This document shows positions 19,296-64,000 of a stretch of 64,000 nt of DNA, piece after piece. The first letter of the stretch is position 1, and every line of letters starts with the position of its first letter. This DNA comes from a virus. Both the position numbers and the translations under genes were made by a program. Below the pieces are notes generated by a model, which had not been told where the DNA came from, ran no database searches, and worked only from the letters and a program-made list of their open reading frames with translations. The stretch lies in IMG/VR virus record IMGVR_UViG_3300025168_000067, positions 8,633-72,632 of that record; one strand, given 5' to 3'.

Positions 19296-19484
19296 ATGGC
19301 TGATGGAATTAATATTTTAGAAGAGATGATTAACCGACTTGAGTGTATTCGTACGGATTACGCTAAGTTCTATGAGGATGGCAACAACGCTGCCGGCACA
19401 CGTGTCCGTAAGGTTATGCAAGAGATCAAAGTAGATGCTCAAGATTTGCGACTTCATATCCAAGAAACAAAGAATAGCGGCTGA
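19296..19484 (+). CDS. Histone H1-like (Hc1 family) small DNA-binding protein
   Basis: KFYEDGNNAAGTRVRKVMQEIK matches the Hc1-like GNxAAGxRxRK motif; SD GGAG at 19283. Confidence 0.7.
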   Translation: MADGINILEEMINRLECIRTDYAKFYEDGNNAAGTRVRKVMQEIKVDAQDLRLHIQETKNSG

Positions 19485-20611
19485 TGGCTAAAAAAGCAAA
19501 AGAAACCAAAGCCGGCCGCGTATCAATGCAAGACTTAATGAGTCTTGTTAATAAGAAGGCCGGCAGACATGTCGCACACGACTTAACCGGCGAGAACCCA
19601 ACAGAGGTCAAAGAGTGGATCTCCACAGGATCTCGTTGGCTTGACAGTATCATCTGTAAAGGACAAGTAGCCGGCATTCCCGTCGGTAAAGTGTCCGAAC
19701 TTGCCGGCCTCACGTCGACAGGCAAGTCATATATGGCAGCTCAGATCGCCGCAAATGCCCAGAAACAGGGCAAGATAGTTGTTTATTTTGATTCAGAGTC
19801 TGCCATCGACCCCGACTTCTTAGAGCGCGCAGGATGCGACCTAAGCCGCTTAATGTATATCCAGGCAACCTCTGTGGAGTTTGTACTGGAGACTGTGGAA
19901 GAATTGTTGGGAGCATCGGATGATCAGCTTTTGTTTATCTGGGACTCTCTCGCATTCACACCGTCAGTATCCGACGTTGAAGGAGACTTCAACCCTCAGT
20001 CATCGATGGCAGTGAAAGCACGTATTCTTGCGAAGGGCATGTCTAAGTTGGTGATCCCTATTGCAGATAAACAGGCAACATTACTGGTTCTCAATCAATT
20101 GAAAACTAATATACCGTCAGGCCCGAATGCACGCATTATTGCGATGACAACACCCTATATGACCCCGGGCGGCAAAGCCCTCCACTATTCATATTCACTA
20201 CGCATCTGGCTGACAGGGCGAAAAGCAAAGTCAGCGTTTGTTGAAGATGATAAGGGTTTTCGCATCGGATCAGAGGTCAAGGCAAAGATCGAGAAGTCGC
20301 GCTTTGGCACCCAAGGACGAAACTGTGCCTTCCGTATTTTGTGGGGTACAGAGGATGTGGGCATCAATGATGAAGAGTCGTGGCTGGATGCAGTCAAAAG
20401 TTCTGAGTTCTTAAAATGTGCCGGTTCGTGGTATACATTAGAAATGCCGGATGGCTATACAAAGAAATTCCAGCCATCTAGATGGGCCGAGATCATCAAG
20501 GCCGATGAAGAATTCCGGAATAAGATTGTCCAATTAATGGATGAAGAAGTTGTTCAAAAATTTGACAAGCGCGAAGGCAAAGCGGAAGATTTCTATAACG
20601 ATCCCGAGTAA
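19484..20611 (+). CDS. recA: RecA/UvsX recombinase
   Basis: ISTGS..LD, Walker A GLTSTGKS, YFDSESA, WDSLA, NQLK, TPGGKALHY. Confidence 0.93.
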   Translation: MAKKAKETKAGRVSMQDLMSLVNKKAGRHVAHDLTGENPTEVKEWISTGSRWLDSIICKGQVAGIPVGKVSELAGLTSTGKSYMAAQIAANAQKQGKIVVYFDSESAIDPDFLERAGCDLSRLMYIQATSVEFVLETVEELLGASDDQLLFIWDSLAFTPSVSDVEGDFNPQSSMAVKARILAKGMSKLVIPIADKQATLLVLNQLKTNIPSGPNARIIAMTTPYMTPGGKALHYSYSLRIWLTGRKAKSAFVEDDKGFRIGSEVKAKIEKSRFGTQGRNCAFRILWGTEDVGINDEESWLDAVKSSEFLKCAGSWYTLEMPDGYTKKFQPSRWAEIIKADEEFRNKIVQLMDEEVVQKFDKREGKAEDFYNDPE

Positions 20612-29434: not shown

Positions 29435-29721
29435 GAAACGCACTGCGGTGGGTATGGCACCGCGTTAAGCACAAGTTAGAGCATTTTCGGCCATCAAAAC
29501 TGCTGGATACGCTCAAAGAACACGGCCTGGCACTTGTTGTCATCATCGTTGCTTGGGAAATTATAGAAGATATATTGTTCCCGTTGCTATTCATTTGGCT
29601 GGGTCACAATGTGAACCCATGGTTTATTACTGGCGCACCAATAAGTTGGTTGTTGTGCCTACACCCGATCGCAGTGCCTATTATTTGGGGCATCTGGATC
29701 AAAGTTAGGAGAGAAGAATGA
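29431..29721 (+). CDS. Small membrane protein
   Basis: Two hydrophobic segments; ATGA overlaps with neighbours. Confidence 0.6.
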   Translation: MRNALRWVWHRVKHKLEHFRPSKLLDTLKEHGLALVVIIVAWEIIEDILFPLLFIWLGHNVNPWFITGAPISWLLCLHPIAVPIIWGIWIKVRREE

Positions 29722-32700
29722 TTAAATTTGTTGGACTACACGCACACAGTGTGGCAGGGTCTATTTTTGATGCCATTGGGTATCCTCAAGAACACATGGA
29801 GTTCTGTTATTCGAATGGCGGTGACGCACTGGCATTAACAGACCACGGCAACATGAATGGGCTATCGTGGCAGGTACTCCACGCGAAGAAGATGAAAGCA
29901 GAAGGCAAAGACTTCAAGCCCATCTTTGGGGTTGAAGCATATTTCACTACGTCTGTTAAGGACTGGCGTGTGGCTTATGATGAAGCAATGGCAGATAAAA
30001 AGAAGTCACGCTCAGCCAAGAAAGATAAACAATCAGGAGCAACAGCAGAAGATGAGGGGGACACAAAAGCCGCACAACCTATCCTTAAACGCCGCCGCCA
30101 CCTAATCCTCCTGGCACAGAACCAGACGGGACTAAATAATCTATACAAGCTAATATCCAAGAGCTATACAGACGAGTACTTTTATCGGTACCCGCGTATG
30201 GACTATGATCTATTGAGAGAACACTCAGAGGGGGTTATAGCAGCTTCTGCATGTCTAGGTGGGGTGTATGCTGGAAACTACTGGGAGAACCGTGACACGG
30301 GCCAAGGAGCCGTTTTAGATGCTATGCGGGAGACAACCATAGAAATGCAATCGATCTTTGGAGATCGCTGGTATGCAGAACTCCAGTGGAATAACATTCC
30401 TGAGCAACATGAACTAAATAAGTACATTATTCAAATTGCAAAAGAGTTTGATCTTAAAATGATCTCAACCGCAGACAGCCACTATCCTAGTCCTGAAGCT
30501 TGGAAGGATCGTGAGATGTATAAGCAACTTGGTTGGCTTGGCAAAGGAAAACCCAAGTGGAAGACCGACGCCGAGGACGAAGAGGAGAAGAGTGTTATTC
30601 CAGAGAACACAGACGTTATTGGATATGAACTCTATCCGAAGAATGGCGACCAGATGTGGGAGAGTTATAAGCACTACTCCGAGACACAGGGCGTTGAGTA
30701 TGACGATGACCTTGTTTTGCAGAGCATCGAAGAGACATATCGTATCGCTCACGAACGCATCGAAAGTTTTATGCCGGACACAACCGTTCGTCTGCCAGAC
30801 TTTGTCGTGCCAGAGGGTGCCACCGCCACGCAAGCACTCGTTCGCTACGCTATCGATGGTCTGCGAGAACTAAAGCTTCACACGAACGACGAATATGTTC
30901 AGCGACTGAAGCATGAGCTTGACGTTATTGACAGCCGCGGCTTCAGCAAGTATTTCCTCACGATGAAAGCCATTGTAGATGAGGCTGCAGAGGTAATGCT
31001 CGTTGGCCCTGGTCGCGGTAGTGCTTGCGGATCACTGGTGGCATATGCGCTGAAGATCACACAGATAGATCCCATCAAATATGCTTTGCCCTTCGAGCGC
31101 TTTCTACGCTCAGATGCGACAGACTATCCTGATATCGATACAGATGTGTCTGCACCAATGGAACTGAAGGAGCGCCTGATCGAGAAGTGGGGAGAAGACA
31201 GAGTAGCACCTATTTCTAACTGGAATACGCTCCAATTAAAGTCGCTTATTAAAGACATTTCAAAGTTGTATGACATTCCATTTTCGGAAGTTAATAACGT
31301 GACAAGTGCGATGATGAACGAGGCCATCGGCCCCGCTAAGCAGCGCCATGGTATTAGCGCTGGTGTATATGTTCCAACCTGGGAAGAGGTGTTGGAGTTT
31401 TCTACATCGCTGAGATCATTCTTGGCTCAACATCCCGAGGTTCAGGAGCGGGTTCAAGGGCTTGTAGGACAGGTGAGAAGCTGCAGCCGTCACGCCGGCG
31501 GTCTGTTAGTATCGGAGAACCTGAACGAGAACATGCCTCTCATCAACAGTGGCGGTGTGCGCCAGTCGCCATGGGCTGAGGGCCAGAACGTACGTCACCT
31601 TGAGCCGATGGGCTTCATTAAGTTTGATCTGCTTGGGCTTTCAACATTGAAGATGATCGAAGGTTGCATCGAACACATCCTCCGACGCCACCATGGGGTA
31701 GAAGAATGTACGTTTGAACAGGTTCGAAACTATTATAACGAGAAACTGCACCCAGATGTGTTAGACTTAAATGATCAATCGGTTTATAAGCACGTGTTTC
31801 ATAGGGGCAACTTTGCCGGCACGTTCCAATTCACCAACGACGGAGCACAGGACTTCTGCAAGAACGTAAAGCCGACGAATATCGCAGAGATTTCAGCGGT
31901 GACCTCTATCTTTCGTCCTGGTCCGTTGTCAGCCAAGGTGCATGACCAATATATTGCAGCCAAGGACGGCCACACTGCCATTGAATGGTACCACCCTATC
32001 TTCAAGGAGATCACAGAGGAGAGTTACGGACATGTTATCTATCAGGAGCAGATCAGTGAGATCACACACAGGATAGGAAAGGATATTTCCCGAGATGATG
32101 GTAACACGATCCGCAAGCTGCTCACAAAGAAGGGCACTGGAAAGGAACATCTTCTACTAAAGTTTCGAGAGCAGTTCATCGAGGGTGCTAGTGAGAAGGG
32201 CATGTCAATTCGCACAGCAGAAGAGATTTGGGACTTGATGGCAGGGTTCGCTAAGTATGGTTTTTCTAAGAACCACGCGACAGCATACAGTATCATCTCT
32301 TACCAGTGTGCTTGGTTATGGAAGAAGTATCCCAGCGAGTGGGCCGCAGCATTCCTTGATAAAGAGCCTGAGAAGAGAAAGGAAAAGGCTATCAATGCAG
32401 CTAAGAGCCATGGCTTTAGGATCGAACCACTCGATATTAATAAGTCAGGTATTGTGTGGGAGATCAGCGAAGACGGTAAGACTCTTATCCAACCGCTGAC
32501 ATCTATCAAGGGTCTTGGTATGTCAGCCATCGAACAGATATTAGAGAACCGTCCGTTTATGAATGCAGAGGATTTATTGTTCCGAGAAGGAGTGTCATAT
32601 AGCAAGTTCAATAAGAAGGCACTGGATGCTCTGTGTAGGGGCGGCGCCCTAGATAATTTGGTGGATAACCGCTTCACTGGCCGAAAGCATTTTTGGAGTG

Positions 32701-33152
32701 CCTGTGTTGTAGAGCGCCCAAAAAATCTCAAGAAGTTTTTGGAGAATTTGGAAATATACGAACCAGAGGGCGACTTTACAGAAGAAGAAGTTATTCAGTT
32801 CAAAACAGACTTAACCGGAATCTTTCCGATGAACCTTGTGATGAGCGCCGAAATGATCGAGAAACTAAAAGAGAAATTTATTCCACCTATTTCTGAATTT
32901 GATCCAGAATTGCAAGTATGCTGGTTTATACCTCGAAAAATTGTGCCTCGCAAGACAAAAAATGGAAAGACTTATTGGATACTTGAGGTGATAGACTCTA
33001 ACAACGAACTAACTAAGATAAGGTGCTGGGGAGTAAAACCTGAAAAAGATCGTATTCATATCAACAGGCCGTATATGAGCCGGCTGGATTATAACGAACA
33101 ATGGGGGTTCTCAACTAGATCTATTAAATATAACTTTCGATTAATGGGATAA
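29718..33152 (+). CDS. dnaE: DNA polymerase III alpha subunit (family C)
   Basis: PHP LHAHS/ALTDHG/GVEAY, GPGRGSACGSLV, FERFL, YPDIDTD, HAGG, KFDLLGL, YGFSKNHA. Confidence 0.96.
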   Translation: MIKFVGLHAHSVAGSIFDAIGYPQEHMEFCYSNGGDALALTDHGNMNGLSWQVLHAKKMKAEGKDFKPIFGVEAYFTTSVKDWRVAYDEAMADKKKSRSAKKDKQSGATAEDEGDTKAAQPILKRRRHLILLAQNQTGLNNLYKLISKSYTDEYFYRYPRMDYDLLREHSEGVIAASACLGGVYAGNYWENRDTGQGAVLDAMRETTIEMQSIFGDRWYAELQWNNIPEQHELNKYIIQIAKEFDLKMISTADSHYPSPEAWKDREMYKQLGWLGKGKPKWKTDAEDEEEKSVIPENTDVIGYELYPKNGDQMWESYKHYSETQGVEYDDDLVLQSIEETYRIAHERIESFMPDTTVRLPDFVVPEGATATQALVRYAIDGLRELKLHTNDEYVQRLKHELDVIDSRGFSKYFLTMKAIVDEAAEVMLVGPGRGSACGSLVAYALKITQIDPIKYALPFERFLRSDATDYPDIDTDVSAPMELKERLIEKWGEDRVAPISNWNTLQLKSLIKDISKLYDIPFSEVNNVTSAMMNEAIGPAKQRHGISAGVYVPTWEEVLEFSTSLRSFLAQHPEVQERVQGLVGQVRSCSRHAGGLLVSENLNENMPLINSGGVRQSPWAEGQNVRHLEPMGFIKFDLLGLSTLKMIEGCIEHILRRHHGVEECTFEQVRNYYNEKLHPDVLDLNDQSVYKHVFHRGNFAGTFQFTNDGAQDFCKNVKPTNIAEISAVTSIFRPGPLSAKVHDQYIAAKDGHTAIEWYHPIFKEITEESYGHVIYQEQISEITHRIGKDISRDDGNTIRKLLTKKGTGKEHLLLKFREQFIEGASEKGMSIRTAEEIWDLMAGFAKYGFSKNHATAYSIISYQCAWLWKKYPSEWAAAFLDKEPEKRKEKAINAAKSHGFRIEPLDINKSGIVWEISEDGKTLIQPLTSIKGLGMSAIEQILENRPFMNAEDLLFREGVSYSKFNKKALDALCRGGALDNLVDNRFTGRKHFWSACVVERPKNLKKFLENLEIYEPEGDFTEEEVIQFKTDLTGIFPMNLVMSAEMIEKLKEKFIPPISEFDPELQVCWFIPRKIVPRKTKNGKTYWILEVIDSNNELTKIRCWGVKPEKDRIHINRPYMSRLDYNEQWGFSTRSIKYNFRLMG

Positions 33153-55792: not shown

Positions 55793-55821
55793 TTGACTTT
55801 TATCTTAAAATGCCCTATATT
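55793..55821 (+). promoter_or_regulatory. sigma70-type promoter
   Basis: TTGACT-N17-TATATT, then SD AAGGAG and ATG at 55846. Confidence 0.65.
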
Positions 55822-55845
55822 ATAGAGGACGCAAAGGAGAGCGTT

Positions 55846-56832: not shown

Positions 56833-56918
56833 GGCCGAGTGGTGAAATGGTAAACACAGGAGACTTAAAATCTCCCGCCCGTTTGGGCTTGCGGGTTCGA
56901 TTCCCGCTTCGGCTACCA
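56833..56918 (+). tRNA. tRNA-Leu(TAA)
   Basis: Cloverleaf with long variable arm, anticodon arm GGAGA-CTTAAAA-TCTCC, GTTCGA, encoded CCA. Confidence 0.93.
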
Positions 56919-56937
56919 AACTAAACAAGAGAGCAAG

Positions 56938-57135
56938 ATGAAATATACTATTATTTACACAGATGCAGAAGGAAACTGGAAGACGACAACTTGCGTTTCT
57001 TCCCATGATAAACATGTAGCTTGGACAGATGTTCAGCAATATCTTAGTGAAGGAGATACAATTCATTTACTTTCGCCAGGAGATCAGATTATTTATTCGG
57101 AGAATGATATAAAAGTGGCAGATACGCCGATGTAG
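56938..57135 (+). CDS. Hypothetical protein between tRNAs
   Basis: 65-aa ORF whose stop lies inside tRNA-Thr. Confidence 0.45.
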   Translation: MKYTIIYTDAEGNWKTTTCVSSHDKHVAWTDVQQYLSEGDTIHLLSPGDQIIYSENDIKVADTPM

Positions 57136-57201
57136 CTCAATTGGTAGAGCAACGGTTTTGTAAACCGTAGGTTGCGGGTTCGAGTCCCATCATCGGCACC
57201 A
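57126..57201 (+). tRNA. tRNA-Thr(TGT)
   Basis: GCCGATG/CATCGGC acceptor, ACGGT-TTTGTAA-ACCGT, CCA. Confidence 0.93.
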
Positions 57202-57202
57202 C

Positions 57203-57257
57203 TTTACACTTCTCTAACAATTTTCTACTTGACAACAGGCGCCCTCAATGCTATATT
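57203..57257 (+). promoter_or_regulatory. Early promoter module (degenerate triple-TGACA type)
   Basis: TTTACA(57203), CTAACA(57214), TTGACA(57229)-N17-TATATT. Confidence 0.65.
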
Positions 57258-57280
57258 TATAGTATAGAAAGGAGAATTAT

Positions 57281-57357
57281 ACATCCTTAGCTCAGTTGGA
57301 TAGAGCATCGGCCTTCTAAGCCGAGGGTCGTTGGTTCGAGCCCAACAGGATGTACCA
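57281..57357 (+). tRNA. tRNA-Arg(TCT)
   Basis: ACATCCT/AGGATGT acceptor, TCGGC-CTTCTAA-GCCGA, CCA. Confidence 0.94.
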
Positions 57358-57365
57358 TATAACAT

Positions 57366-57443
57366 GCGGGCGTAGCATATGACGGTGAATGCACTGTTCT
57401 TATAAAGCAGAGAGTGTGGGTTCAAGTCCCACCGCCCGTACCA
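57366..57443 (+). tRNA. tRNA-Ile(TAT)
   Basis: GCGGGCG/CGCCCGT acceptor, CTGTT-CTTATAA-AGCAG, GTTCAA, CCA. Confidence 0.88.
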
Positions 57444-57450
57444 TTTTTTT

Positions 57451-57527
57451 AGGCTCTTAGCTCAGTTGGTCAGAGCATCCGGCTCATAACCGGTCGGTCG
57501 TGGGTTCAAGTCCCACAGAGCCTACCA
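57451..57527 (+). tRNA. tRNA(CAT), likely Ile2 (lysidine type), otherwise elongator Met
   Basis: AGGCTCT/AGAGCCT acceptor, CCGG-CTCATAA-CCGG, CCA; lacks initiator features. Confidence 0.88.
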
Positions 57528-57555: not shown

Positions 57556-58053
57556 ATGGGCTGCGATATTCACGGTTTTTGGGAAGTACAGACGCCATCA
57601 GGTAAATGGTTCGCCATACGTGAAATAAACAGCGATAGATCATATGTGTGGTTCGGCGCTGTGGCGGGCGTGAGATCACAGGACATTAGCTCTATCGTGC
57701 CTGTTCGCGGCAGTCCCGCAGATGCCTCTATTGCATGGGCTGACTATTGCACCGATGAAATAGAGTCAGGTTTTCTACATCACTCAACCTGGCTAACACC
57801 GAGTGAAATATCTGCCGCAAACGCAGCATATCGTGAAGCTACAAAAGACTGGAGAGAGCCACACCACCCAAACGATCACGAATCCATACCGCGACTAACA
57901 GATGAGGTTTGCGAACTTATTACAGGATATAACTATGTTAGTGGCCATGGCAATACACAAATTATTAAATGGGCTGGCACGATTGAGGATCTTATTGGAA
58001 AGGATGCTATTTATGAACAGAGTATCAGATTCGTTTGTGCATTTGATAACTGA
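57556..58053 (+). CDS. Phage hypothetical protein (MGCDIH type)
   Basis: MGCDIH..RSY..F..AGVR..RG.P..HSTWLT..RFVCAFDN. Confidence 0.65.
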   Translation: MGCDIHGFWEVQTPSGKWFAIREINSDRSYVWFGAVAGVRSQDISSIVPVRGSPADASIAWADYCTDEIESGFLHHSTWLTPSEISAANAAYREATKDWREPHHPNDHESIPRLTDEVCELITGYNYVSGHGNTQIIKWAGTIEDLIGKDAIYEQSIRFVCAFDN

Positions 58054-58072
58054 GGAATATGAGTTATATCTA

Positions 58073-58309
58073 ATGTCCGATCCAAACATCCAAATAGGCT
58101 CACACGTCGAACATGTGCATGAGGAAAAGTGGCATGGTGAGGTTCTTGGGCTTGTGTTCGACGAAGAAGGACAAGTTGAATCTATTTCGGTTTGGCTCGA
58201 CGATGGTAACGTGGTTGATGACTACATAGAATATTGGGATCATATTGAGGTTGATGCACTACCAGACAATGTTATTGACGCCGCAGATAGGTTTGGAAAA
58301 GAAGAATGA
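58073..58309 (+). CDS. Small SH3-like hypothetical protein
   Basis: IQIGSHVEH..GEVLG..VWLDDG. Confidence 0.55.
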   Translation: MSDPNIQIGSHVEHVHEEKWHGEVLGLVFDEEGQVESISVWLDDGNVVDDYIEYWDHIEVDALPDNVIDAADRFGKEE

Positions 58310-58500
58310 AGTTATTTAAGATCACAGGCCGACACACACAAGTCAAAACACCTGATGGCGTGGTATTAACATGTTGGCTTGGAGCAGAAACTAAAGAAGA
58401 TGCCTTGACATTGTGCGCGGAAAAGGGTATAGTAGATATAGAATGTATTATTGACGATACGAACACGAACCCGTTTCTTGAGGGAAAGAAAGACAGATGA
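58306..58500 (+). CDS. Hypothetical protein
   Basis: ATGA-coupled ORF; contains an internal TTGACA-N17-TATAGT at 58405-58433. Confidence 0.5.
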   Translation: MKLFKITGRHTQVKTPDGVVLTCWLGAETKEDALTLCAEKGIVDIECIIDDTNTNPFLEGKKDR

Positions 58501-58679
58501 GTTATCACGATGGCTACCACTCATATCCAGACACGGGCATTTCTGTTGTAAATCCGCTGATTCAAAACGAAAAGAAGATCATGGAGATCAAGAGACTCCT
58601 GGCCGAATCGGTGGTAAAAGAGATAACAGCCACAGAACTGCGAGAGCAGATTGCAAAAGTATTAAACGAATATGAATGA
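58497..58679 (+). CDS. Hypothetical protein
   Basis: ATGA-coupled ORF. Confidence 0.45.
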   Translation: MSYHDGYHSYPDTGISVVNPLIQNEKKIMEIKRLLAESVVKEITATELREQIAKVLNEYE

Positions 58680-59025
58680 TTTTCACTACGCTAAAGCCGG
58701 CCTACCACGCGATGTTCGCAATGCACCCGACCTAAGAAATGCGTTAAGAATGTATATTGATAAGCGGTTGCTTCACGTTTCGGATATTTGTCTCCAACAC
58801 AACGAAGACCCATTTAGAAAGGAATACGGTTTGATTCATAAGCGTTATGCGAATACATTAACGCTGGTTGCAGAGGCAACACAAGACGTCAACTATTTAA
58901 CGAAGTCAGTTATTGAGTGGATAAGTGAGGACTTTAAGAACGCACTGACGGGGGCACAGAGAGGCGCCGCCGGCATTTGTGGGGCAGAACTATTGAAGAT
59001 CGTTGAAAGCTATGAAGGTCGGTGA
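58672..59025 (+). CDS. Hypothetical protein
   Basis: Coupled ORF; ends YEGR* overlapping the first array gene by 14 nt. Confidence 0.55.
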   Translation: MNDFHYAKAGLPRDVRNAPDLRNALRMYIDKRLLHVSDICLQHNEDPFRKEYGLIHKRYANTLTLVAEATQDVNYLTKSVIEWISEDFKNALTGAQRGAAGICGAELLKIVESYEGR

Positions 59026-59233
59026 CTTAGTTATATATGTTCCCAGATCACGTATGTCTGATAAATATAAGTGGAAAAAGAAAAGTACCACAAAGCTAAC
59101 TGCACCGGGTATCCTCATTGAAGAAATAGTGAATAAAGGTACAACCTCTCGCATGTTTTCAGTACGTTGGCATAGTGGGATAGTAACTGATGAGTGGTCG
59201 GCGTTTCTTATTCCGTATGGAGAAGAAAAATGA
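59012..59233 (+). CDS. MKVGDLV-family SH3-like microprotein
   Basis: MKVGDLVIY..PGILIE..VRWHSG. Confidence 0.7.
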   Translation: MKVGDLVIYVPRSRMSDKYKWKKKSTTKLTAPGILIEEIVNKGTTSRMFSVRWHSGIVTDEWSAFLIPYGEEK

Positions 59234-59424
59234 ATGTAGGTGATCTGGTCAGAGTATCATACAACAAACGCCCGAAACCCGGTGAAGGGTTTGTCAGCAT
59301 TGTGTTGGAGGTCAACAGGAGTGAGAACCACCCAAACGGCTTGGGGTTAGTTAAAGTTTTGGAGGATGGACAAGAGCAATGGTATCCGATTGGGTACATC
59401 GAGGTGATCAGTGAAAGTAGGTAA
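59230..59424 (+). CDS. MKVGDLV-family SH3-like microprotein
   Basis: MNVGDLVRV..IEVISESR*. Confidence 0.7.
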   Translation: MNVGDLVRVSYNKRPKPGEGFVSIVLEVNRSENHPNGLGLVKVLEDGQEQWYPIGYIEVISESR

Positions 59425-59593
59425 CTTAGTTAAAAGAAGGGATGACCACAGACACCACGGTATTGTGATAGAGGTGGCACCCATAGAAACGCGCATCGAT
59501 CATGGAGATAATGTGTGCCGTGTGGAGTGGTCTGACGGCGAGGTTTCTTTTGAGTTTATAAAGATGCTTGAGGTATTGAGTGAAGGTCGGTGA
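59411..59593 (+). CDS. MKVGDLV-family SH3-like microprotein
   Basis: MKVGNLVK..GIVIEV..VEWSDG..LEVLSEGR*. Confidence 0.7.
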   Translation: MKVGNLVKRRDDHRHHGIVIEVAPIETRIDHGDNVCRVEWSDGEVSFEFIKMLEVLSEGR

Positions 59594-59753
59594 TCTGGTC
59601 GAGATTGAAAAGTGGTGCAAGAATAAGGGGCGCAGAGGTATTGTAGTTGAAGCCATTGAATATATGGGGTGCGTTAAAATCCGCTACCTGGATACGGGCG
59701 AACCTTCAAGCGCGCTGAGAGATAACCTGAAGGTGCTAAGTGAAAGTAGGTGA
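59580..59753 (+). CDS. MKVGDLV-family SH3-like microprotein (57 aa, not in ORF track)
   Basis: Translated by hand: MKVGDLVEIEKWCKNKGRRGIVVEA..LKVLSESR*. Confidence 0.7.
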   Translation: MKVGDLVEIEKWCKNKGRRGIVVEAIEYMGCVKIRYLDTGEPSSALRDNLKVLSESR

Positions 59754-59946
59754 TCTAATATCGTTCAAACCAAAATCGTTCGGTGATGATGACTGGTCTA
59801 ACCCCGGTATTGTTCTGGATAGCTATGAGGATGATGATCGACAGGCAGGAGGATGGAAAGACTTGATATGGATTGTATGGATCGACGGTGGCAAGTATAT
59901 GATCAACGAAAGAAACGACGATGTGACTTACTTGACAAGCTCTTGA
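59740..59946 (+). CDS. MKVGDLV-family SH3-like microprotein
   Basis: MKVGDLISF..PGIVLD..VWIDGG. Confidence 0.7.
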   Translation: MKVGDLISFKPKSFGDDDWSNPGIVLDSYEDDDRQAGGWKDLIWIVWIDGGKYMINERNDDVTYLTSS

Positions 59947-59986
59947 CAACTTAAACCTTGACGTAGAGCGCCCTCGGTGTTATATT
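59932..59986 (+). promoter_or_regulatory. Triple-TGACA early promoter module
   Basis: TTGACA(59932), TTGACA(59943), TTGACG(59958)-N17-TATATT, then ATAGGTATAGAAAGGAGG. Confidence 0.75.
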
Positions 59987-60010
59987 ATAGGTATAGAAAG
60001 GAGGAAAATA

Positions 60011-60178
60011 ATGAAAGTAGGCGATCTGGTGGTTTCTGCACGTGGCTATTGGCACACTCCGAGACTTGTAGTATCAACTCACGAAACAGCCAAGGCGTTG
60101 CTCGGAATACTTTGGCCCGATGGCGAGATAAAGTATGTTCATTATAAACACCTGGAGGTTTTAAGTGAAAGCCGGTGA
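60011..60178 (+). CDS. MKVGDLV-family SH3-like microprotein (55 aa, not in ORF track)
   Basis: Translated by hand: MKVGDLVVSARG..ILWPDG..LEVLSESR*; strong SD. Confidence 0.7.
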   Translation: MKVGDLVVSARGYWHTPRLVVSTHETAKALLGILWPDGEIKYVHYKHLEVLSESR

Positions 60179-60353
60179 TTTGGTACGGTTTGAGAGCACA
60201 CAGCACGACGACATGGATCGTTATGGTGTGGAATATGGCGTTGTAGTGAGAATGTCCACCACCGGACACACCACAGAGTCAGCAGAAGTATTGTTTAATG
60301 ATGGAGAATTGGCATGGGTTGGCACTCAAAGATTGGTGGTAATAAGTGAGTAA
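60165..60353 (+). CDS. MKVGDLV-family SH3-like microprotein
   Basis: MKAGDLVRF..GVVVR..VLFNDG..LVVISE*. Confidence 0.7.
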   Translation: MKAGDLVRFESTQHDDMDRYGVEYGVVVRMSTTGHTTESAEVLFNDGELAWVGTQRLVVISE

Positions 60354-60558
60354 TATAAGTAGGCGAGTTTGGAAAGCGAAAGGGCACAACTATATTTTGT
60401 TTGGCACGATCGTTGCTGAGAGAACGACAAATGGGTGGTCGATGGTAAAAGTCGAGTGGGCACAACCGCACCCTGAAGCAAACATGGCAGATGAGTGGCA
60501 GAGACTCGTTGATCTTGGCGATGTGGAGGATTTGATAGAGATGACGCAACAGAAATGA
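60346..60558 (+). CDS. Small SH3-like hypothetical protein
   Basis: GTIVAE..VKVEW; coupled. Confidence 0.55.
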   Translation: MSNISRRVWKAKGHNYILFGTIVAERTTNGWSMVKVEWAQPHPEANMADEWQRLVDLGDVEDLIEMTQQK

Positions 60559-60743
60559 AGGATAGCGGCGCGCCCAGCATTGGCGATCTTGTTATCGCAC
60601 TCTACGATGAGCTACGCGACATTTCTTGTGTTGGGTTGGTGATGGAGACTAAGGGAATTGAATGTAAGATTCAGTGGTCATCGGAAAGTAATCCTATCGG
60701 ATGGTGGCCAAGATCAAAGCTAAAAGTTATCAGCGCAGTCTGA
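60555..60743 (+). CDS. MKVGDLV-family SH3-like microprotein
   Basis: SIGDLVI..GLVME..IQWS..LKVIS. Confidence 0.65.
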   Translation: MKDSGAPSIGDLVIALYDELRDISCVGLVMETKGIECKIQWSSESNPIGWWPRSKLKVISAV

Positions 60744-60794
60744 CATTCTCTTGACAAAAAATATATTGACAACCACATAACATCGTGCTATATT
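60740..60794 (+). promoter_or_regulatory. Triple-TGACA early promoter module
   Basis: CTGACA(60740), TTGACA(60751), TTGACA(60766)-N17-TATATT. Confidence 0.75.
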
Positions 60795-60812
60795 ATATTT
60801 AAGAGAGAAGAA

Positions 60813-61145
60813 TTGCTTGTTAAAAACTTAAAAGTTGGGATGTTGTTGGTGCCAAAGGAGGGCGCGATTTTCAAACACTATAAGGCCCAGTCTGCCCATG
60901 ATGAAACAGAACACTTAGAGTGCTACACTTTACGATCGCACCGTGTTTATCAGCGATATGCGGATCACCCGTTAGCGAAACAACACGTTGTTTATCTCGG
61001 AAAGGCAGCAAAAGAGCACACAGACACAGAGTATTATGAATATAGACACAGAGTGTTCGTCCCTGCTCTTGGTCGGGAAATGCGGATCGCCAGTGAGTGT
61101 TGGCGCAGTATAGAACCACTGGACCTTGGGAGGCCACCACAATGA
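60813..61145 (+). CDS. Hypothetical protein (LKVGMLL start)
   Basis: Directly downstream of the promoter module. Confidence 0.55.
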   Translation: MLVKNLKVGMLLVPKEGAIFKHYKAQSAHDETEHLECYTLRSHRVYQRYADHPLAKQHVVYLGKAAKEHTDTEYYEYRHRVFVPALGREMRIASECWRSIEPLDLGRPPQ

Positions 61146-61236
61146 GAACGGCAATATACACATTTAGTTTTATTTTTATTGGGATTCCGATCATCGGGCT
61201 ATTAACAGTTGCGATAGAAGTGCTTAGGGGCATGCT

Positions 61237-61548
61237 ATGAAGGCCGGCGATCTGGTTACGTTGTCAGCATATTCGGAAGGACTTTCGGATCTGTATAAGT
61301 TTGCTGAACACAGGAGAAAGATGGCCGGAAAGCCACCACTCATCGGACTTGTTGTTAAAAAAGAGGTGCTAACACCTGACCAAAAAGCCTATAGATACTG
61401 CAACTCTGAGAATGAAAAAACACGTTATTATATTAACTGGATGAATAAAGACTGTCCCGTAAGTAGGTACGGAAGTGCAAGACACTATATGAAATCGCAT
61501 GCCTACTTCCTTCGCAAAGACCTCAAATATGTCAGAGGAAACAAGTGA
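61237..61548 (+). CDS. MKVGDLV-family protein with insertions
   Basis: MKAGDLVTL..IGLVVK..INWM..DLKYV. Confidence 0.65.
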   Translation: MKAGDLVTLSAYSEGLSDLYKFAEHRRKMAGKPPLIGLVVKKEVLTPDQKAYRYCNSENEKTRYYINWMNKDCPVSRYGSARHYMKSHAYFLRKDLKYVRGNK

Positions 61549-61778
61549 CCCTACTAAAAACATTTGTATTGATCGGAATAGTCGATTCTTTTGATGCTCG
61601 TTTTGCGACGGTCGAACTAAATACTAATCCTGCCACAAATGGTGGGGCATCCCTCGCAGTGATGCCAATCACCGCGTTTCCATGCGAGATATACGAAGGC
61701 AAAAGGTTTTTCGTTGTAAAACTTGACGAAAACCAAGACTCAGTGATCATTTGCGATCGAGAACCAGAAAAGAAATGA
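61545..61778 (+). CDS. Hypothetical protein
   Basis: GTGA-coupled ORF. Confidence 0.5.
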   Translation: MTLLKTFVLIGIVDSFDARFATVELNTNPATNGGASLAVMPITAFPCEIYEGKRFFVVKLDENQDSVIICDREPEKK

Positions 61779-62098
61779 GTGAGATATTAAGTAAAATGAA
61801 TACATACCCAAGACTTGTTTGTGCCGATGGCTTTGAAATGAGTGTTCAGGCAAACCAGAACGCTTACTGCACCCCGCGCCGGAACAACGCAAAAAAATAT
61901 AAAGAAGTGGAAGTGGGCTTCCCGAGTACTGAAGAACCGATGCTGATGGAATATGTGGAAAGTGAAGGAAAGCCCACCGATACGGTTTATCCTTACGTTC
62001 CAGTGGGCGTCGTAACGAATGTTATCGCTAAGCACGGCGGAATGGTTGAGGGGGATGTGCCTCCCGGCGTTATACCATTGAGAGCTAGCAGCCGGTGA
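61775..62098 (+). CDS. Phage hypothetical protein
   Basis: CADGFEMSVQA..YC.PR..VEVGFPS..DTVYPYVP..HGG; ATGA-coupled start. Confidence 0.65.
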   Translation: MSEILSKMNTYPRLVCADGFEMSVQANQNAYCTPRRNNAKKYKEVEVGFPSTEEPMLMEYVESEGKPTDTVYPYVPVGVVTNVIAKHGGMVEGDVPPGVIPLRASSR

Positions 62099-62319
62099 AG
62101 TTTATAGGCAACCACAAAACCAAAAACTTTCACGTTGGCGATCTCGTTTATGATCAGTTTCATGGTGTTGGAGTCGTGATAGATATTTGTGATCAAATGT
62201 GTGATATGGAAATACGGTTCCGTCGCCCTGAAGAAGTTATATTTATAGGCAGTGATGGCCTTGATATGATTACAGTCGTAAGCAAGGCAAAACACAGAAA
62301 GCCTCACAACCTTCGCTGA
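62095..62319 (+). CDS. MKVGDLV-family SH3-like microprotein
   Basis: FHVGDLVYD..GVGVVID..ITVVS. Confidence 0.6.
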   Translation: MKFIGNHKTKNFHVGDLVYDQFHGVGVVIDICDQMCDMEIRFRRPEEVIFIGSDGLDMITVVSKAKHRKPHNLR

Positions 62320-62320
62320 C

Positions 62321-62375
62321 CTGACATTCACTTGACAACTCTGGCATTGACAGCGGTGGCTTTCAGTGCTATATT
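62321..62375 (+). promoter_or_regulatory. Triple-TGACA early promoter module
   Basis: CTGACA(62321), TTGACA(62332), TTGACA(62347)-N17-TATATT, then ATAGGTATAGAAAGGA. Confidence 0.75.
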
Positions 62376-62399
62376 ATAGGTATAGAAAGGAAGAAAGCA

Positions 62400-62555
62400 A
62401 TGCAAGTCGGCAGTTTGGTACGTGAGACTATAGATGGCAACATCGGTGTCATCTTGGCGTGGGAAAATGACGGCTGGCTTGTCAACTTCCCGAAGCATGG
62501 CATGGTGTTCCACATGATGCCGAGACTCTTGGAGGTGATCAGTGCAAGTCGGTGA
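62400..62555 (+). CDS. MKVGDLV-family SH3-like microprotein (51 aa, not in ORF track)
   Basis: Translated by hand: MQVGSLVRETIDGNIGVIL..LEVISASR*. Confidence 0.7.
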   Translation: MQVGSLVRETIDGNIGVILAWENDGWLVNFPKHGMVFHMMPRLLEVISASR

Positions 62556-62736
62556 CTTAGTTAAACATTTTCTCACAGAGCAAGTGGGCATCGTGCTGAC
62601 GGTAGTGGTGGCCAAGCCTCGCCGTAGCATCGGATCGGTGCATGTGATATGGACTACACAGGGTGATTCGCTTTTCGGTCCCGGCAACAAAGAATGGTGC
62701 TGTCCAGAAAGTTTAGAACACTTGACAACTGCTTGA
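62542..62736 (+). CDS. MKVGDLV-family SH3-like microprotein
   Basis: MQVGDLVKH..GIVL..VIW..SLEHL. Confidence 0.7.
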   Translation: MQVGDLVKHFLTEQVGIVLTVVVAKPRRSIGSVHVIWTTQGDSLFGPGNKEWCCPESLEHLTTA

Positions 62737-62775
62737 CACAATATCGCTTGCTAAATGCTGCCAAGCGGTTATATT
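62722..62775 (+). promoter_or_regulatory. Triple-TGACA early promoter module
   Basis: TTGACA(62722), TTGACA(62733), TTGCTA(62748)-N16-TATATT, then ATAGGCATAGAAAGGA. Confidence 0.7.
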
Positions 62776-62798
62776 ATAGGCATAGAAAGGAAAAAACT

Positions 62799-63008
62799 AT
62801 GACCGAGCAACAACACCCAATCCACGCCGTAGGATCTTTGGTGCGGCACAAGAACCTTCCTGACCGCCCCCTTGCACTTGTTATAGACCATGCGCCTTGT
62901 TCAGGTGGTAGCGGGATCATCGTCAGGGTGCTAAAGCCATCAAGGGGCAATCCAAGCGGTGAGTTTGTCACAACATCTATCAGATGGGAACTTGTTTCTT
63001 CGTCTTGA
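62799..63008 (+). CDS. SH3-like microprotein
   Basis: MTEQQHPIHAVGSLVRH..ALVID..WELVSSS; SD upstream. Confidence 0.6.
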   Translation: MTEQQHPIHAVGSLVRHKNLPDRPLALVIDHAPCSGGSGIIVRVLKPSRGNPSGEFVTTSIRWELVSSS

Positions 63009-63058
63009 CATTAGCCTGACAAGAATCGGCTTGCATCCACAGCCAAACATGTTATATT
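63005..63058 (+). promoter_or_regulatory. Triple-TGACA early promoter module
   Basis: TTGACA(63005), CTGACA(63016), TTGCAT(63031)-N16-TATATT. Confidence 0.7.
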
Positions 63059-63079
63059 ATAAGGGTAAGGAGAGAAGAA

Positions 63080-63457
63080 ATGGGTTATCGTTCAGAAGTT
63101 ATATTGGCAATCGGTCCAGAGGTCATGCCTCAGTTTATGGTTACAATGGCAAAGTCGCCTGAAGCGCGAGAAATGTGTTGGGCAGAACACGATGAAATGA
63201 TTAAGGATTATTGCGATATCGAGGGTGCGTTCCTTTTTCGATGGGATCATATTAAGTGGTACTCATCTTATGAGGGTGTTGCAGCCATTGAAGATTTTAT
63301 GGCTTGGTGCGAGCGCGAGGGAATAAAAGACGAAAAGGGAGAGGAACAAGGTGCCGATAGCTATTATCGTTTCGTCCGTATTGGCGAGGAAACAGATGAT
63401 AACGAGGTTCATGGATGGGCATTTGATATTCACATTGAACGCAGCGCAACTTATTGA
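63080..63457 (+). CDS. Phage hypothetical protein (MGYRSEV type)
   Basis: MGYRSEV..IKWY..FVRIGEETDD; SD AAGGAG. Confidence 0.65.
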   Translation: MGYRSEVILAIGPEVMPQFMVTMAKSPEAREMCWAEHDEMIKDYCDIEGAFLFRWDHIKWYSSYEGVAAIEDFMAWCEREGIKDEKGEEQGADSYYRFVRIGEETDDNEVHGWAFDIHIERSATY

Positions 63458-63463
63458 TTTTAG

Positions 63464-63539
63464 GGGCGAATAGCTCAACTGGTAGAGCAAAAGGCTTTTA
63501 ACCTTTAGGTTCCGGGTTCGAGTCCCGGTTCGCCCACCA
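63464..63539 (+). tRNA. tRNA-Lys(TTT)
   Basis: GGGCGAA/TTCGCCC acceptor, AAAGG-CTTTTAA-CCTTT, GTTCGA, CCA. Confidence 0.94.
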
Positions 63540-63560
63540 CCCTTAACACGAGAAAACACA

Positions 63561-63839
63561 ATGAAAATGACAATCGTAATAGACTCCAGCGACCGAGAAG
63601 GCATCCACGATGCACTAAAGATGGTGCGTATCATGCACACAAAGTATTCGGGGAACGCTACCGCACACAAAGAATCGTTCAGCAAGATTGAGTTTATCAA
63701 GATGCTCCGCAAGTTTATGAAGGAATCCATCGAACACCTTGACGATCCCGATTCTGGACAGGTCCGGGATATGACCGACATGCCAAATCTTCGTAATGCC
63801 AAGCGTTTCGCTGACCGCATATTTACGGGGATGCGATGA
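63561..63839 (+). CDS. Hypothetical protein
   Basis: KIEFIKMLR..LRNAKRFAD; co-oriented. Confidence 0.55.
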   Translation: MKMTIVIDSSDREGIHDALKMVRIMHTKYSGNATAHKESFSKIEFIKMLRKFMKESIEHLDDPDSGQVRDMTDMPNLRNAKRFADRIFTGMR

Positions 63840-64000
63840 AGGTTGGTGATCTGGTGAGAATGAAAACCCATAATACGGGACTTGTCGGCATTGTGATGGG
63901 CAGGTATCCTAAATACACCGATACCGGTCCTATACAGATAGGTATAAAATGGTTTAAGGGGTCAGGTAAGACGGACTGGGAACCCGAATCTTGGTTGGAG
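63836..64000 (+). CDS. MKVGDLV-family microprotein (3'-truncated by window edge)
   Basis: MKVGDLVRMKTHNTGLVGIVM..IKWF..ESWLE, open at the window end. Confidence 0.65.
   Translation, partial: MKVGDLVRMKTHNTGLVGIVMGRYPKYTDTGPIQIGIKWFKGSGKTDWEPESWLE

Follow-up and report, generated by a model that had tools for sequence, protein, structure and literature searches.

Trains of small barrel genes with a dual-coding joint in a marine T4-like phage, and apparent whole-gene exchange among its relatives

How does a phage come to carry a row of small genes that resemble one another mainly at their two ends, and do those ends, each of which is read in two frames where neighbours meet, act as points at which whole genes are exchanged? 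The DNA that raises the question is a 64,000-nt stretch (hereafter 'the window'), which forms the final part of a 72.6-kb contig from an uncultured marine T4-like phage; related phages have genomes of approximately 195 kb. The reading favoured here, which we regard as probable on the strength of sequence comparison, is that the window holds trains of barrel genes, old and diverged paralogues of one very large small-barrel family, whose dual-coding joints, together with repeated promoter cassettes, would be crossover points for general recombination within a plastic early-gene region.

The gene family and its predicted fold

A preliminary description of this DNA had reported an array of more than a dozen genes, mostly of 50-80 aa, that share a sequence skeleton and have 'unrelated' interiors. 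The array itself was borne out: a profile built from the 14 genes (17-31% identity to the first sequence), when run against all + strand stop-to-stop ORFs of the 72.6-kb contig, matched 14 ORFs, all of them in 59003-64000, and the 13 complete members encode 51-103 aa. The interiors, however, are not unrelated, as G-I-V, W and D-G positions, as well as one fold, are common to the members; the only cross-paralogue match seen inside the window is between genes f and c (37% aa). Starts of the form M-K/Q-V/A-G-D/S/N-L-V are found in the ORF lists at 59012, 59230, 59411, 59580, 59740, 60011, 60165, 61237, 62400, 62542 and 63836, and N-terminally extended variants begin at 60555, 62095 and 62799. The array reads as follows:

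59012-59233 (+): family gene a, 73 aa; promoter-distal, after a non-family ORF; profile E 8e-13
59230-59424 (+): family gene b, 64 aa; ATGA 4-nt overlap with a; L013 orthologue 89% aa
59411-59593 (+): family gene c, 60 aa; profile match; modelled
59580-59753 (+): family gene d, 57 aa; profile match
59740-59946 (+): family gene e, 68 aa; last of its train; profile match
60011-60178 (+): family gene f, 55 aa; profile match
60165-60353 (+): family gene g, 62 aa; profile match
60346-60558 (+): ORF T, 70 aa; 8-nt overlap with g; no profile match, no family
60555-60743 (+): family gene h, 62 aa; profile match
60813-61145 (+): ORF R, 110 aa; no family
61237-61548 (+): family gene i (putative start), 103 aa, long insertion; profile match
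61545-62098 (+): ORFs P (77 aa) and Q (107 aa), non-family; backbone genes retained by most relatives
62095-62319 (+): family gene j, 74 aa, N-terminal extension; profile match
62400-62555 (+): family gene k, 51 aa; profile match
62542-62736 (+): family gene l, 64 aa; profile match
62799-63008 (+): family gene m, 69 aa, N-terminal extension; profile match
63080-63457 (+): ORF A, 125 aa, non-family
63464-63539 (+): tRNA-Lys (ttt)
63561-63839 (+): ORF S, 92 aa, non-family
63836-64000 (+): family gene n, cut by the contig end; profile match

The family fold is predicted to be a five-strand barrel of approximately 60 residues and of the SH3/Tudor/KOW-like type, in agreement with the barrel that had been proposed. 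An AF2 model of the gene c product (pLDDT 93.7; strands 6-9, 16-22, 35-40, 45-49 and 53-57) was placed by Foldseek among Tudor, PWWP, KOW and designed SH3 barrels. The resemblance to these domains, and to the YorP protein of the Bacillus subtilis phage SPbeta (PDB 2heq), extends to strand number, size and TM scores of 0.62-0.77, whereas the Foldseek E-values are 0.014 or weaker and family databases gave no match: ten members scanned against Pfam matched no family at E<=0.1 (the only four matches, at E 0.2-0.31, are far below cut-offs), PHROGs returned only matches at E 0.06-0.09 to families of unknown function, and the small ORFs of the array had no Pfam match. The modelled likeness thus holds at the level of the fold only and says nothing about ligand. 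At E<=0.001 the family, whose proteins have a median length of 62 aa, is matched by 5760 representatives (50%-identity clusters), and the gene interiors are, to judge from a dN/dS below 0.45 in 32 of the 34 computable orthologue pairs, under purifying selection.

Coupling joints and promoter cassettes

The preliminary description had also named five junctions sharing a 24-nt element. A search with RAGGTNNTNARTGMAAGYNGGTRA, allowing at most one mismatch, recovered exactly those five positions, as compared with no match to the same pattern in 100 dinucleotide-preserving shuffles:

59401-59424 (+): coupling joint b/c; ribosome-binding site in E-V-I codons, GTG start, 14-nt overlap, TAA stop
59570-59593 (+): coupling joint c/d; 24-nt pattern match
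59730-59753 (+): coupling joint d/e; 24-nt pattern match
60155-60178 (+): coupling joint f/g; 24-nt pattern match
62532-62555 (+): coupling joint k/l; 24-nt pattern match

The element is read in two frames, as had been described, giving ...E-V-I/L-S-E-S/G-R-stop upstream and M-K/Q-V/A-G-D/N downstream. The codons for the last strand of the upstream protein (L-E-V-I-S) double as an extended ribosome-binding site, GGAGGTGATC, with the start codon 1 nt later, and the first strand of the downstream protein, M-K-V-G-D-L-V, provides the upstream stop (TGA) through its Gly-Asp codons (GGT GAY). The latter accounts for an incidental ...E-S-R tail and for the 14-nt overlap, whose constancy was confirmed by all five downstream GTG starts, each placed 14 nt ahead of the point where the upstream stop codon ends. 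Translational coupling is the most likely consequence of this arrangement.

The claim that this junction joins the array holds for five of the 14 family genes and fails for the rest, where 4-nt overlaps (ahead of the genes at 59230, 60555, 62095 and 63836) and a repeated promoter cassette (ahead of those at 60011, 62400 and 62799) are found. The joint is nevertheless the prevailing connection between family neighbours: in the window contig and 19 related loci (L001-L019), which carry 283 family genes, 103 consecutive pairs overlap by exactly 14 nt; next in frequency come overlaps of 4 nt, with 14 pairs, and of 11 nt, with 8. In all, 216 related loci, some of them redundant, were fetched with ORF A as the anchor and compared, using a simple ORF-plus-profile caller for family genes; they contain 2080 family genes, none on the opposite strand, with 912 joints of 14 nt versus 93 of 4 nt and a longest train of 14 genes.

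Each train begins at a strong sigma-70-type promoter cassette, which recurs within the window:

59944-60010 (+): promoter cassette 1; TTGACA-like boxes, TATATTATA at 59981, AGGAGG ribosome site
60750-60812 (+): promoter cassette 2; TATATTATA at 60789
62330-62399 (+): promoter cassette 3; TATATTATA at 62370
62721-62798 (+): promoter cassette 4; TATATTATA at 62770
63005-63079 (+): promoter cassette 5; TATATTATA at 63053

The first three match the sigma-70-like consensus at 10-11 of 12 positions, and this promoter is a feature of the cassette that is absent from the coupling joint. Boxes of a cassette can lie inside the preceding gene: the C-terminal codons of gene e hold a TTGACA box of the next cassette, and the C-terminal L-T-T-A codons of gene l hold the first TTGACA box of cassette 4. 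A scan of 58500-64000 found no convincing + strand terminator, only weak + strand hairpins, one of which (62757-62769) sits between the boxes of cassette 4.

It had been asked of the joint whether its conservation exceeds what two reading frames and a ribosome site require. For the most part it does not, as most of it is explained by three stacked constraints: the upstream last strand, the extended ribosome-binding site and the stop-supplying downstream first strand. In a profile of 91 joints, positions -11 to -2 read GGAGGTGATC, A occupies -1 in 98%, and the start onward reads RTG MAA GTN GGT GAT YTG GT, with T at +12 in 100% of overlapped starts; the synonymous positions -5 and -2, outside the ribosome site, vary. 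A GTG start codon is used by 55% of overlapped starts versus 13% of other starts, an excess that fits a choice of Ser (AGT) versus Asn (AAT) in the upstream frame. What may go beyond these requirements is a synonymous bias in family starts that are not overlapped, where (counting one gene per 45%-identity cluster) GGT is used in 41 of 58 as against a 31% baseline (p 6e-10) and GAT (48/52), AAA (37/47) and GTC (17/40) also lie near the joint consensus. No hairpin or other structure was found when 70 nt around each of the five window joints were folded (z -1.08 to +0.97 versus shuffles).

Pairs of joints within a locus share identical in-register runs with a median of 11 nt and a 90th percentile of 19 nt, and 8% reach 20 nt. 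Homology on the scale of 11 nt is short for RecA-type exchange, and a median this low indicates that exchange is probably rare, short-homology recombination. Joints are also barely more alike within a locus (0.724) than between loci (0.712), and thus show little sign of ongoing joint-to-joint conversion.

Gene order and breakpoints among relatives

Orthologues in the relatives are 55-98% identical in amino acid sequence, yet stand in different orders. In the window the order is a b c d e f g T h R i P Q j k l m A S n, in locus L086 it is P g h c b d e Q A S n f l, and in L013 it is P h g c b d e Q A S f l; gene order is therefore not shared, an outcome in favour of the proposal of exchange that had been staked on it. 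Individual events were visible between close relatives. Loci L014 and L015, which are 99.6-99.99% identical over 20 kb, differ by one indel of 176 nt that corresponds precisely to a single family gene; the identical 20-nt repeat that flanks it lies at the starts of two adjacent genes. Between L064 and L095 (96-97% identical), one extra 150-aa gene, ending ...L-E-I-V-N-E-S-R, is inserted at a joint. One of three clean indels (L141/L168; a tRNA and a small ORF) is unrelated to the family.

Replacement breakpoints were located as the unique internal ends of blocks of at least 94% identity. Fifteen of 31 such ends fall no more than 30 nt from a family start and six in a promoter cassette, a second connector that is also a breakpoint (examples of both kinds are L004/L013, L021/L073 and L011/L020). 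Joint and cassette together account for 21 of the 31, versus 10.6% expected (p 5e-14), and inside arrays 15 of 23 ends lie at family starts, versus 22% expected (p 1e-5). Left ends lie at -20 to 0 and right ends mostly at +15 to +29 of the family start, within the shared sequence, and in L073 a 10-codon relic (M-K-V-G-D-L-L-T-T-A) is fused at a short shared stretch. Contigs from four other marine runs leave the window at connectors in 19 of the 24 loose ends listed, of 214 in total. Finally, of the 46 orthologue clusters with at least two members, 34 include genes that follow a 14-nt overlap as well as genes in other contexts. The anticipated placing of gain, loss and replacement at the junction was thereby upheld by the two family indels and the enriched block ends. 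To the extent that metagenome contigs, in which assembly chimeras at repeats are possible, can be compared in this way, the loss, gain, replacement and reordering of whole genes at joints and cassettes is real.

Mechanism, alternatives and known systems

The same ~35 nt at both ends of every gene would allow joints to serve as crossover points, and crossovers at these shared ends would delete, insert, replace or reorder whole genes with reading frames and expression signals intact. In the proposed mechanism, short trains, each running from a promoter cassette and linked internally by the dual-coding joint, would cross over between phage genomes at joints, and likewise at cassettes, through replication slippage or general short-homology recombination. 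What conserves the joint is mainly the stacked coding and ribosome-site constraints, and its proficiency in recombination is probably a side effect from which the family profits. A gp32-like gene is present and so, in the window, is the candidate catalyst that had been suggested:

19484-20611 (+): RecA-family recombinase (PF00154, E 3e-33)

Among 30 large ORFs scanned, no integrase or recombinase family other than RecA was found. On that scan the 'integrase-free' half of the cassette system first envisaged is supported, but nothing seen here shows a dedicated system: the exchange fits general short-homology recombination.

Its closest parallel, and a published precedent for whole-gene shuffling at repeated elements, is the modular shuffling at promoter-early stem-loops (PeSLs) of T4-type phages (Arbiol et al. 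2010, PMC2839356; Comeau et al. 2014, PMC4122927). Both cases concern T4-like phages and a plastic region rich in small orphan genes, have a short repeated expression signal on both sides of each gene, lack a site-specific recombinase (in the present case among the 30 large ORFs scanned), and show close relatives that differ by whole-gene indels or replacements ending in the repeats; with their TTGACA boxes, TATATTATA and a ribosome site, the promoter cassettes here are similar to the promoter half of a PeSL. In contrast, PeSLs are intergenic, ~100 bp long and inclusive of a terminator stem-loop (for which 58500-64000 offers no convincing + strand counterpart), whereas the main connector here is coding, ~35 nt long, read in two frames, located within operons and confined to one paralogue family.

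A bolder and, at present, unlikely extension of the favoured reading holds that the joint is a portable, nucleotide-level 'coding connector' that lets any gene stand behind any other gene or cassette, providing a recombinase-independent, integron-like and continual reassortment of thousands of small binding proteins, probably early host-takeover or counter-defence effectors. If so, the connector would supply a neighbour's stop, ribosome site and start wherever a gene is placed, and the excess of GGT, GAT, AAA and GTC in non-overlapped starts would be the trace of selection for it.

That same bias in the first five codons of non-overlapped genes is an argument for a distinctly unlikely alternative, in which selection would act on the joint as a site of recombination (making it the coding analogue of an integron attC or a PeSL), a RecA/UvsX-type enzyme excises and reinserts circles to an appreciable extent, and the whole is a dedicated effector-diversifying system. 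The occurrence of 34 of the 46 clusters in both contexts, the RecA-family and gp32-like genes and the mini-circles shown for PeSLs (PMC2839356) agree with it. The bias, however, may also reflect selection on translation starts or a recent stay behind an overlap, there is free variation at positions -5 and -2, the identical stretches that joints have in common are short, and the five window joints form no hairpin (z -1.1 to +1.0).

A further alternative, which appears very unlikely, is survivorship only: breaks would be illegitimate and fall anywhere, products with intact genes would survive, and joints would simply be where selection tolerates breaks. Block ends at gene borders are indeed also to be expected from selection for intact genes after random breaks; since neighbouring genes overlap and appear to be under purifying selection, only crossovers within a joint leave both intact, and 10 of the 31 block ends do fall outside connectors. 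Against this, the perfect 20-nt direct repeat bounding the L014/L015 indel is a signature of homology- or slippage-mediated deletion, block ends lie inside shared sequence (left ends at -20 to 0, right ends mostly at +15 to +29), and the L073 relic is a non-functional product that intact-gene selection does not favour. Finally, it is scarcely credible that the joint is a programmed recoding site, where a +1 shift or stop bypass would yield 'beads-on-a-string' multi-barrel polyproteins: the downstream gene lies in the +1 frame of the upstream one, natural two-barrel proteins read the start codon internally (for example P0124, ...L-E-V-V-K-Q-V-K-V-G-D-L-V...) and two matched stretches occur in 6 of the best 150 representatives, but fused forms are rare, ordinary in-frame fusions, no slippery motif or stimulatory structure was found at the joints, and a canonical ribosome site lies 6 nt ahead of the start codon at every joint.

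Trains with joints and cassettes as crossover points for general recombination, the reading preferred here, share with integron arrays the rows of small, mostly promoterless cassettes served by an upstream promoter, and their gain, loss and reordering as units. They differ in that no IntI-type integrase was found among the 30 large ORFs scanned, an attC-like hairpin is absent at the five window joints, the joints are coding and the cassettes all belong to one protein family. In tandem paralogue arrays such as the gene 'accordions' of poxviruses, unequal crossing-over between repeated units changes copy number and order, and recombination between repeats would do likewise here. The units in the window, however, are old paralogues (one pair at 37% aa, other window pairs with no match), and as only their two ends are alike, exchange would be confined to the joints, moving different genes rather than amplifying one.

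The phage and its array of small genes

The window represents the final 64 kb of a single 72,632-base contig, and the + strand holds every large open reading frame (ORF) within it. These large ORFs include a DnaE-type polymerase, GroEL, a class II ribonucleotide reductase, GMP reductase, a gp32-like protein, a flap nuclease, ClpP and a RecA-family protein; dUTPase, Dam and other enzymes are encoded as well. A T4-type capsid protein is encoded upstream of the window, and its nearest cultured counterparts belong to Microcystis phage Mel-JY01 (50% amino acid identity), Flavobacterium phage immuto (47%) and Rhodothermus phage RM378 (43%). DnaE, GroEL and the capsid protein reach no more than 51% amino acid identity among deposited phage records and 50% among cultured phages, so that a cultured model is lacking; both a near-DNA search of the array region and a tblastn search with gene e returned no match among cultured phages. 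Given the T4-type capsid, the lack of DNA shared with cultured phages, the marine or seawater metagenomes in which stretches of the window were found, and IMG/VR relatives with contigs of up to 195-203 kb, this is an uncultured marine T4-like phage, in which the array is located within an orphan-gene region that adjoins tRNA genes.

Features of the window
16018-17202, family A polymerase-like domain protein, 394 aa (profile match restricted to the C-terminal part)
19484-20611, + strand, RecA-family protein (among the large ORFs scanned)
29718-33152, full DnaE-type Pol III alpha
55793-55830, further promoter cassette
56833-57527 and 63464-63539, six tRNA genes (Leu, Thr, Arg, Ile, Met, Lys)
59944-60010, promoter cassette, with TATATTATA at 59981
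60750-60812, promoter cassette, with TATATTATA at 60789
62330-62399, promoter cassette, with TATATTATA at 62370
62721-62798, promoter cassette, with TATATTATA at 62770
63005-63079, promoter cassette, with TATATTATA at 63053

For a phage whose capsid is of the T4 type, it is unusual to encode a family A polymerase-like protein beside a full DnaE-type polymerase. The tRNA genes lie on either side of the orphan-gene region, and their order and placement relative to the array vary between relatives.

Fourteen genes of the region (here termed a to n) align as one family, and a profile constructed from them matches just those 14 among the + strand ORFs of the whole contig. The preliminary description had reported an array of SH3-like genes joined by a conserved 24-nt dual-coding junction (the ‘coupling joint’), and that observation is confirmed: a degenerate pattern matches only the five elements originally described (at b/c, c/d, d/e, f/g and k/l) and has no match in 100 shuffles, and at all five a GTG start codon is found 14 nt ahead of the end of the upstream stop codon, as expected from the fixed overlap that had been proposed. 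Other family genes of the window are entered via 4-nt overlaps or a repeated promoter cassette, which comprises two or three TTGACA-like boxes, TATATTATA and an AGGA-type ribosome site, and which heads each gene train; sigma-70-type promoters and strong ribosome sites were noted. The contig terminates inside gene n, where assembly may have stopped at the repeat-rich array. In two other marine sequencing runs (X2 and X20), position 64000 is linked to 59737, such that gene n is followed through a joint by an e-like gene, which suggests that this order exists in other populations.

The barrel family and its coupling joint

Searches of Pfam and PHROGs provided no usable family for 10 members of the array, nor for 10 neighbouring ORFs. 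A word-seeded search yielded 449 proteins at E<=0.001 among 794 candidates, and the 120 matches listed carry no Pfam domain and no name except ‘hypothetical protein’. An exhaustive profile search identified 5760 representatives (clustered at 50% identity) at E<=0.001, with 78 of them at 1e-10 or better, and a search of a protein atlas returned unnamed viral clusters only. The family is thus very large, with thousands of copies in marine viromes, and constitutes a sizeable piece of viral dark matter with an organisation that is clear and testable.

The SH3/KOW-like barrel originally proposed for these proteins agrees with an AlphaFold2 model of gene c (96-sequence alignment; pLDDT 93.7), in which five strands and a short helix are predicted. 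The Foldseek neighbours of that model are Tudor, PWWP, KOW and designed SH3 barrels and B. subtilis YorP (TM 0.62-0.77, with E values of 0.014 or weaker), while its neighbours among viral models (BFVD) are unnamed or uncharacterised small proteins (best TM 0.82, 33% identity). The first and last strands of the model correspond to the conserved sequence ends of the family. Interior codons displayed dN/dS below 0.45 in 32 of the 34 computable orthologue pairs (38 were listed) and 0.57 in the other two; the family members are real genes under purifying selection.

For comparison, 216 usable loci were gathered from a 125-aa ORF used as an anchor (63080-63457) and a pattern scan, some of them representing the same contig from two collections, and family genes were called by a combination of ORF and profile criteria. 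The resulting 2080 genes occupy a single strand at each locus, with none on the opposite strand; their median length is 62 aa (50-80 aa in 92.5%), and the longest unbroken train contains 14 genes. Consecutive genes overlap by exactly 14 nt in 912 cases, by 4 nt in 93 and by 11 nt in 22.

A profile of 91 joints consists of T at -12, GGAGGTGATC at -11 to -2 (presumably complementary over its whole length to the conserved 3' end of 16S rRNA) and A at -1 in 98%, followed by RTG MAA GTN GGT GAT YTG GT. The upstream frame reads L-E-V-I-[S/N]-E-S-R-stop, and the stop is a T-G-A that straddles the downstream Gly and Asp codons (T at +12 in 100%), so that M-K-V-G downstream dictates the E-S-R tail; D-E-S-R is likewise the end of a non-family gene located ahead of a family gene in locus L064. 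GTG accounts for 55% of overlapped starts versus 13% of others, and the upstream Ser (AGT, which requires GTG) and Asn (AAT, which allows ATG) occur 498 and 350 times, respectively, in keeping with start codon usage. The Glu of L-E-V is present in 79% of genes with a 14-nt overlap downstream versus 44% of the rest (many of which are unaligned), which argues that selection on the ribosome site adds to a preference at the protein level. The first TTGACA box of the next promoter falls within the last codons of 113 of 1068 uncoupled genes and in none of 907 coupled ones; genes e and l of the window carry such a box, which is encoded as L-T-T/S in some train-ending genes.

Whether conservation of the joint exceeds what two reading frames and a ribosome site require, as the preliminary description had asked, receives a divided answer. 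At two synonymous positions outside the ribosome site the 91 joints vary (-5: G 56, A 23, T 14, C 7%; -2: C 46, A 31, T 18, G 5%), and there is thus no excess conservation there. However, the codon choices of the joint are retained in family starts that are not overlapped, and this excess is real.

Codon choice at non-overlapped family starts (each 45%-identity cluster represented by a single gene; baseline frequencies taken from long genes and from the interiors of family genes)
Codon; observed; baseline; p
GGT; 41/58; 31%; 6e-10
GAT; 48/52; 65%; 5e-6
AAA; 37/47; 53%; 2e-4
GTC; 17/40; 19%; 5e-4

Movement of genes between overlapped and non-overlapped positions would be expected to produce such an excess, and of the 46 clusters that have two or more members, 34 are found in both contexts; selection on the translation start region could be another source.

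Exchange of whole genes among relatives

Within the window, BLAST identified a sole match between paralogues (f versus c, 37% amino acid identity), whereas orthologues in other phages are 55-98% identical, which indicates that the array is old rather than a product of recent duplication. Gene order is not common to the relatives: most of them retain a backbone of non-family ORFs (P, Q, A and S) followed by gene n, while the family genes shift position.

Gene order in the window and in five related loci (a to n, family genes; A, P, Q, R, S and T, non-family ORFs)
Window: a b c d e f g T h R i P Q j k l m A S n
L086: P g h c b d e Q A S n f l
L013: P h g c b d e Q A S f l
L014: P g h b e Q m A n l
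L001: P e g h c Q A S n
L069: P g c Q A S n k l

Where relatives match the window at the DNA level, they do so in gene-sized blocks that both begin and end within approximately 10-20 nt of gene starts (for example 59228-59430, 59402-59599 and 60163-60349). A count of 31 internal block ends (at least 94% identity, de-duplicated) places 15 no more than 30 nt from a family start and 6 in promoter cassettes, with the other 10 outside these connectors. Joint and cassette together account for 21 of the 31, versus 10.6% expected (p 5e-14), and inside the arrays 15 of 23 ends are at family starts, versus 22% expected (p 1e-5), as the proposal of breakpoints within the junction had anticipated. Left block ends fall at -20 to 0 of the family start, and right ends mostly at +15 to +29. 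A wider count at 90% identity or more gave 250 ends (categories A 65, B 83 and C 102), but these lack independence and in part reflect the conserved anchor gene, and the count was therefore discounted. When contigs of four other marine runs were compared with 58000-64000, 19 of 24 loose ends listed (of 214) were read as falling at joints or cassettes, a result used only as evidence that contigs of other populations diverge at connectors because in many of these junctions the sides are short (21-29 nt) or are separated by unknown letters; one X20 contig, 95.5% identical, diverges from the window precisely where gene b begins, at its start codon.

Selection for intact genes would by itself leave the surviving breakpoints at gene borders. 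Against this explanation, two cases argue that exchange takes place within the shared sequence. The first is among the clean recent events identified in all pairs with two colinear blocks at 95% identity or more: L014 and L015 (= L103, L105) are 99.6-99.99% identical over 20 kb, and the 176 nt by which they differ correspond exactly to a single family gene, counted between two start codons, with an identical 20-nt stretch at each end. In the second, L073 contains a 10-codon relic ORF (M-K-V-G-D-L-L-T-T-A; about 7190-7240; L021 4256-4291), where a family start is fused directly to a promoter cassette; this looks like an ‘empty cassette’ created by deletion of an entire gene interior at a short shared stretch. 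A further pair among the clean events, L064 and L095 (96-97% identical), differs by about 440 nt containing one 150-aa gene that ends in L-E-I-V-N-E-S-R and sits at a joint, with the tail of the upstream gene altered accordingly. Mosaic borders are found in the joint (L011/L021, on both sides; L020/L021; L046/L048) and in the cassette (L004/L013, on the right side; L021/L073; L011/L020), the latter thus also serving as a recombination breakpoint in relatives.

The comparison of related loci therefore shows exchange of whole genes at the joint, and this part of the original cassette reading is upheld; a dedicated system is not supported. Between joints of the same locus the identical run has a median of 11 nt and a 90th percentile of 19 nt, and reaches 20 nt or more in 8%, so that exchange at the joint is likely rare and of a short-homology or slippage kind. 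All of these comparisons rest on assembled metagenome contigs; the final word sizes that assemblers usually employ exceed repeats of 20 nt or less, which would argue against chimeras. Concerted evolution among the joints of one genome was considered and is not relied upon, as likeness within a locus (0.724) exceeds that between loci (0.712) by a tiny amount, albeit one reached in none of 1000 permutations.

A third clean event, of a different kind, distinguishes L141 (7253-7469) from L168, which are 99.6-99.95% identical: a 223-nt segment bounded by an 8-nt overlap contains a tRNA and a small ORF, and was rejected as a family event because the family is not involved. It represents plasticity of the tRNA region.

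Relation to known connectors

It has long been asked how phages retain and reshuffle so many small orphan early genes. An integron is rejected as the answer here: no integrase was found among the large ORFs scanned, in agreement with the ‘integrase-free’ label given earlier, and the five window joints display no attC-like hairpin, nor any other RNA or DNA secondary structure that was looked for.

For T4 relatives of the coliphage type, one answer is provided by PeSLs, which two reports (PMC2839356; PMC4122927) describe as repeated intergenic cassettes of about 100 bp, containing a promoter and a stem-loop, in T4-type phages; they border the orphan genes of hyperplastic regions, coincide with the ends of indels when close relatives are compared, and give rise to mini-circles. 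PeSL-mediated modular shuffling is the closest described mechanism. The promoter cassettes of the window fill the role of a PeSL, although without a clear terminator. In contrast to the intergenic PeSL, the coupling joint is coding, is read in two frames, belongs to one family and is internal to an operon. Within the literature searched, the PeSL papers were recovered and no description of the coupling joint or of the barrel family. The joint is accordingly regarded as a new form of an already known connector-mediated modular shuffling, in which whole genes are gained, lost and reordered in this lineage without a dedicated recombinase, via a connector that is embedded in the genes it links. 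The two ends of the small barrel fold serve also as stop codon, ribosome site and start codon, and the joint offers an example of how a short sequence can be frozen by coding constraints in three layers and go on to influence the evolution of the genome.

Two-barrel proteins also occur naturally, but rarely (P0124, P0143, P0165, P0148, P0206 and P0267); in these the joint acts as an in-frame linker, and an internal Val or Met is encoded by what was once the start codon. Two matched stretches are present in 6 of the best 150 family representatives.
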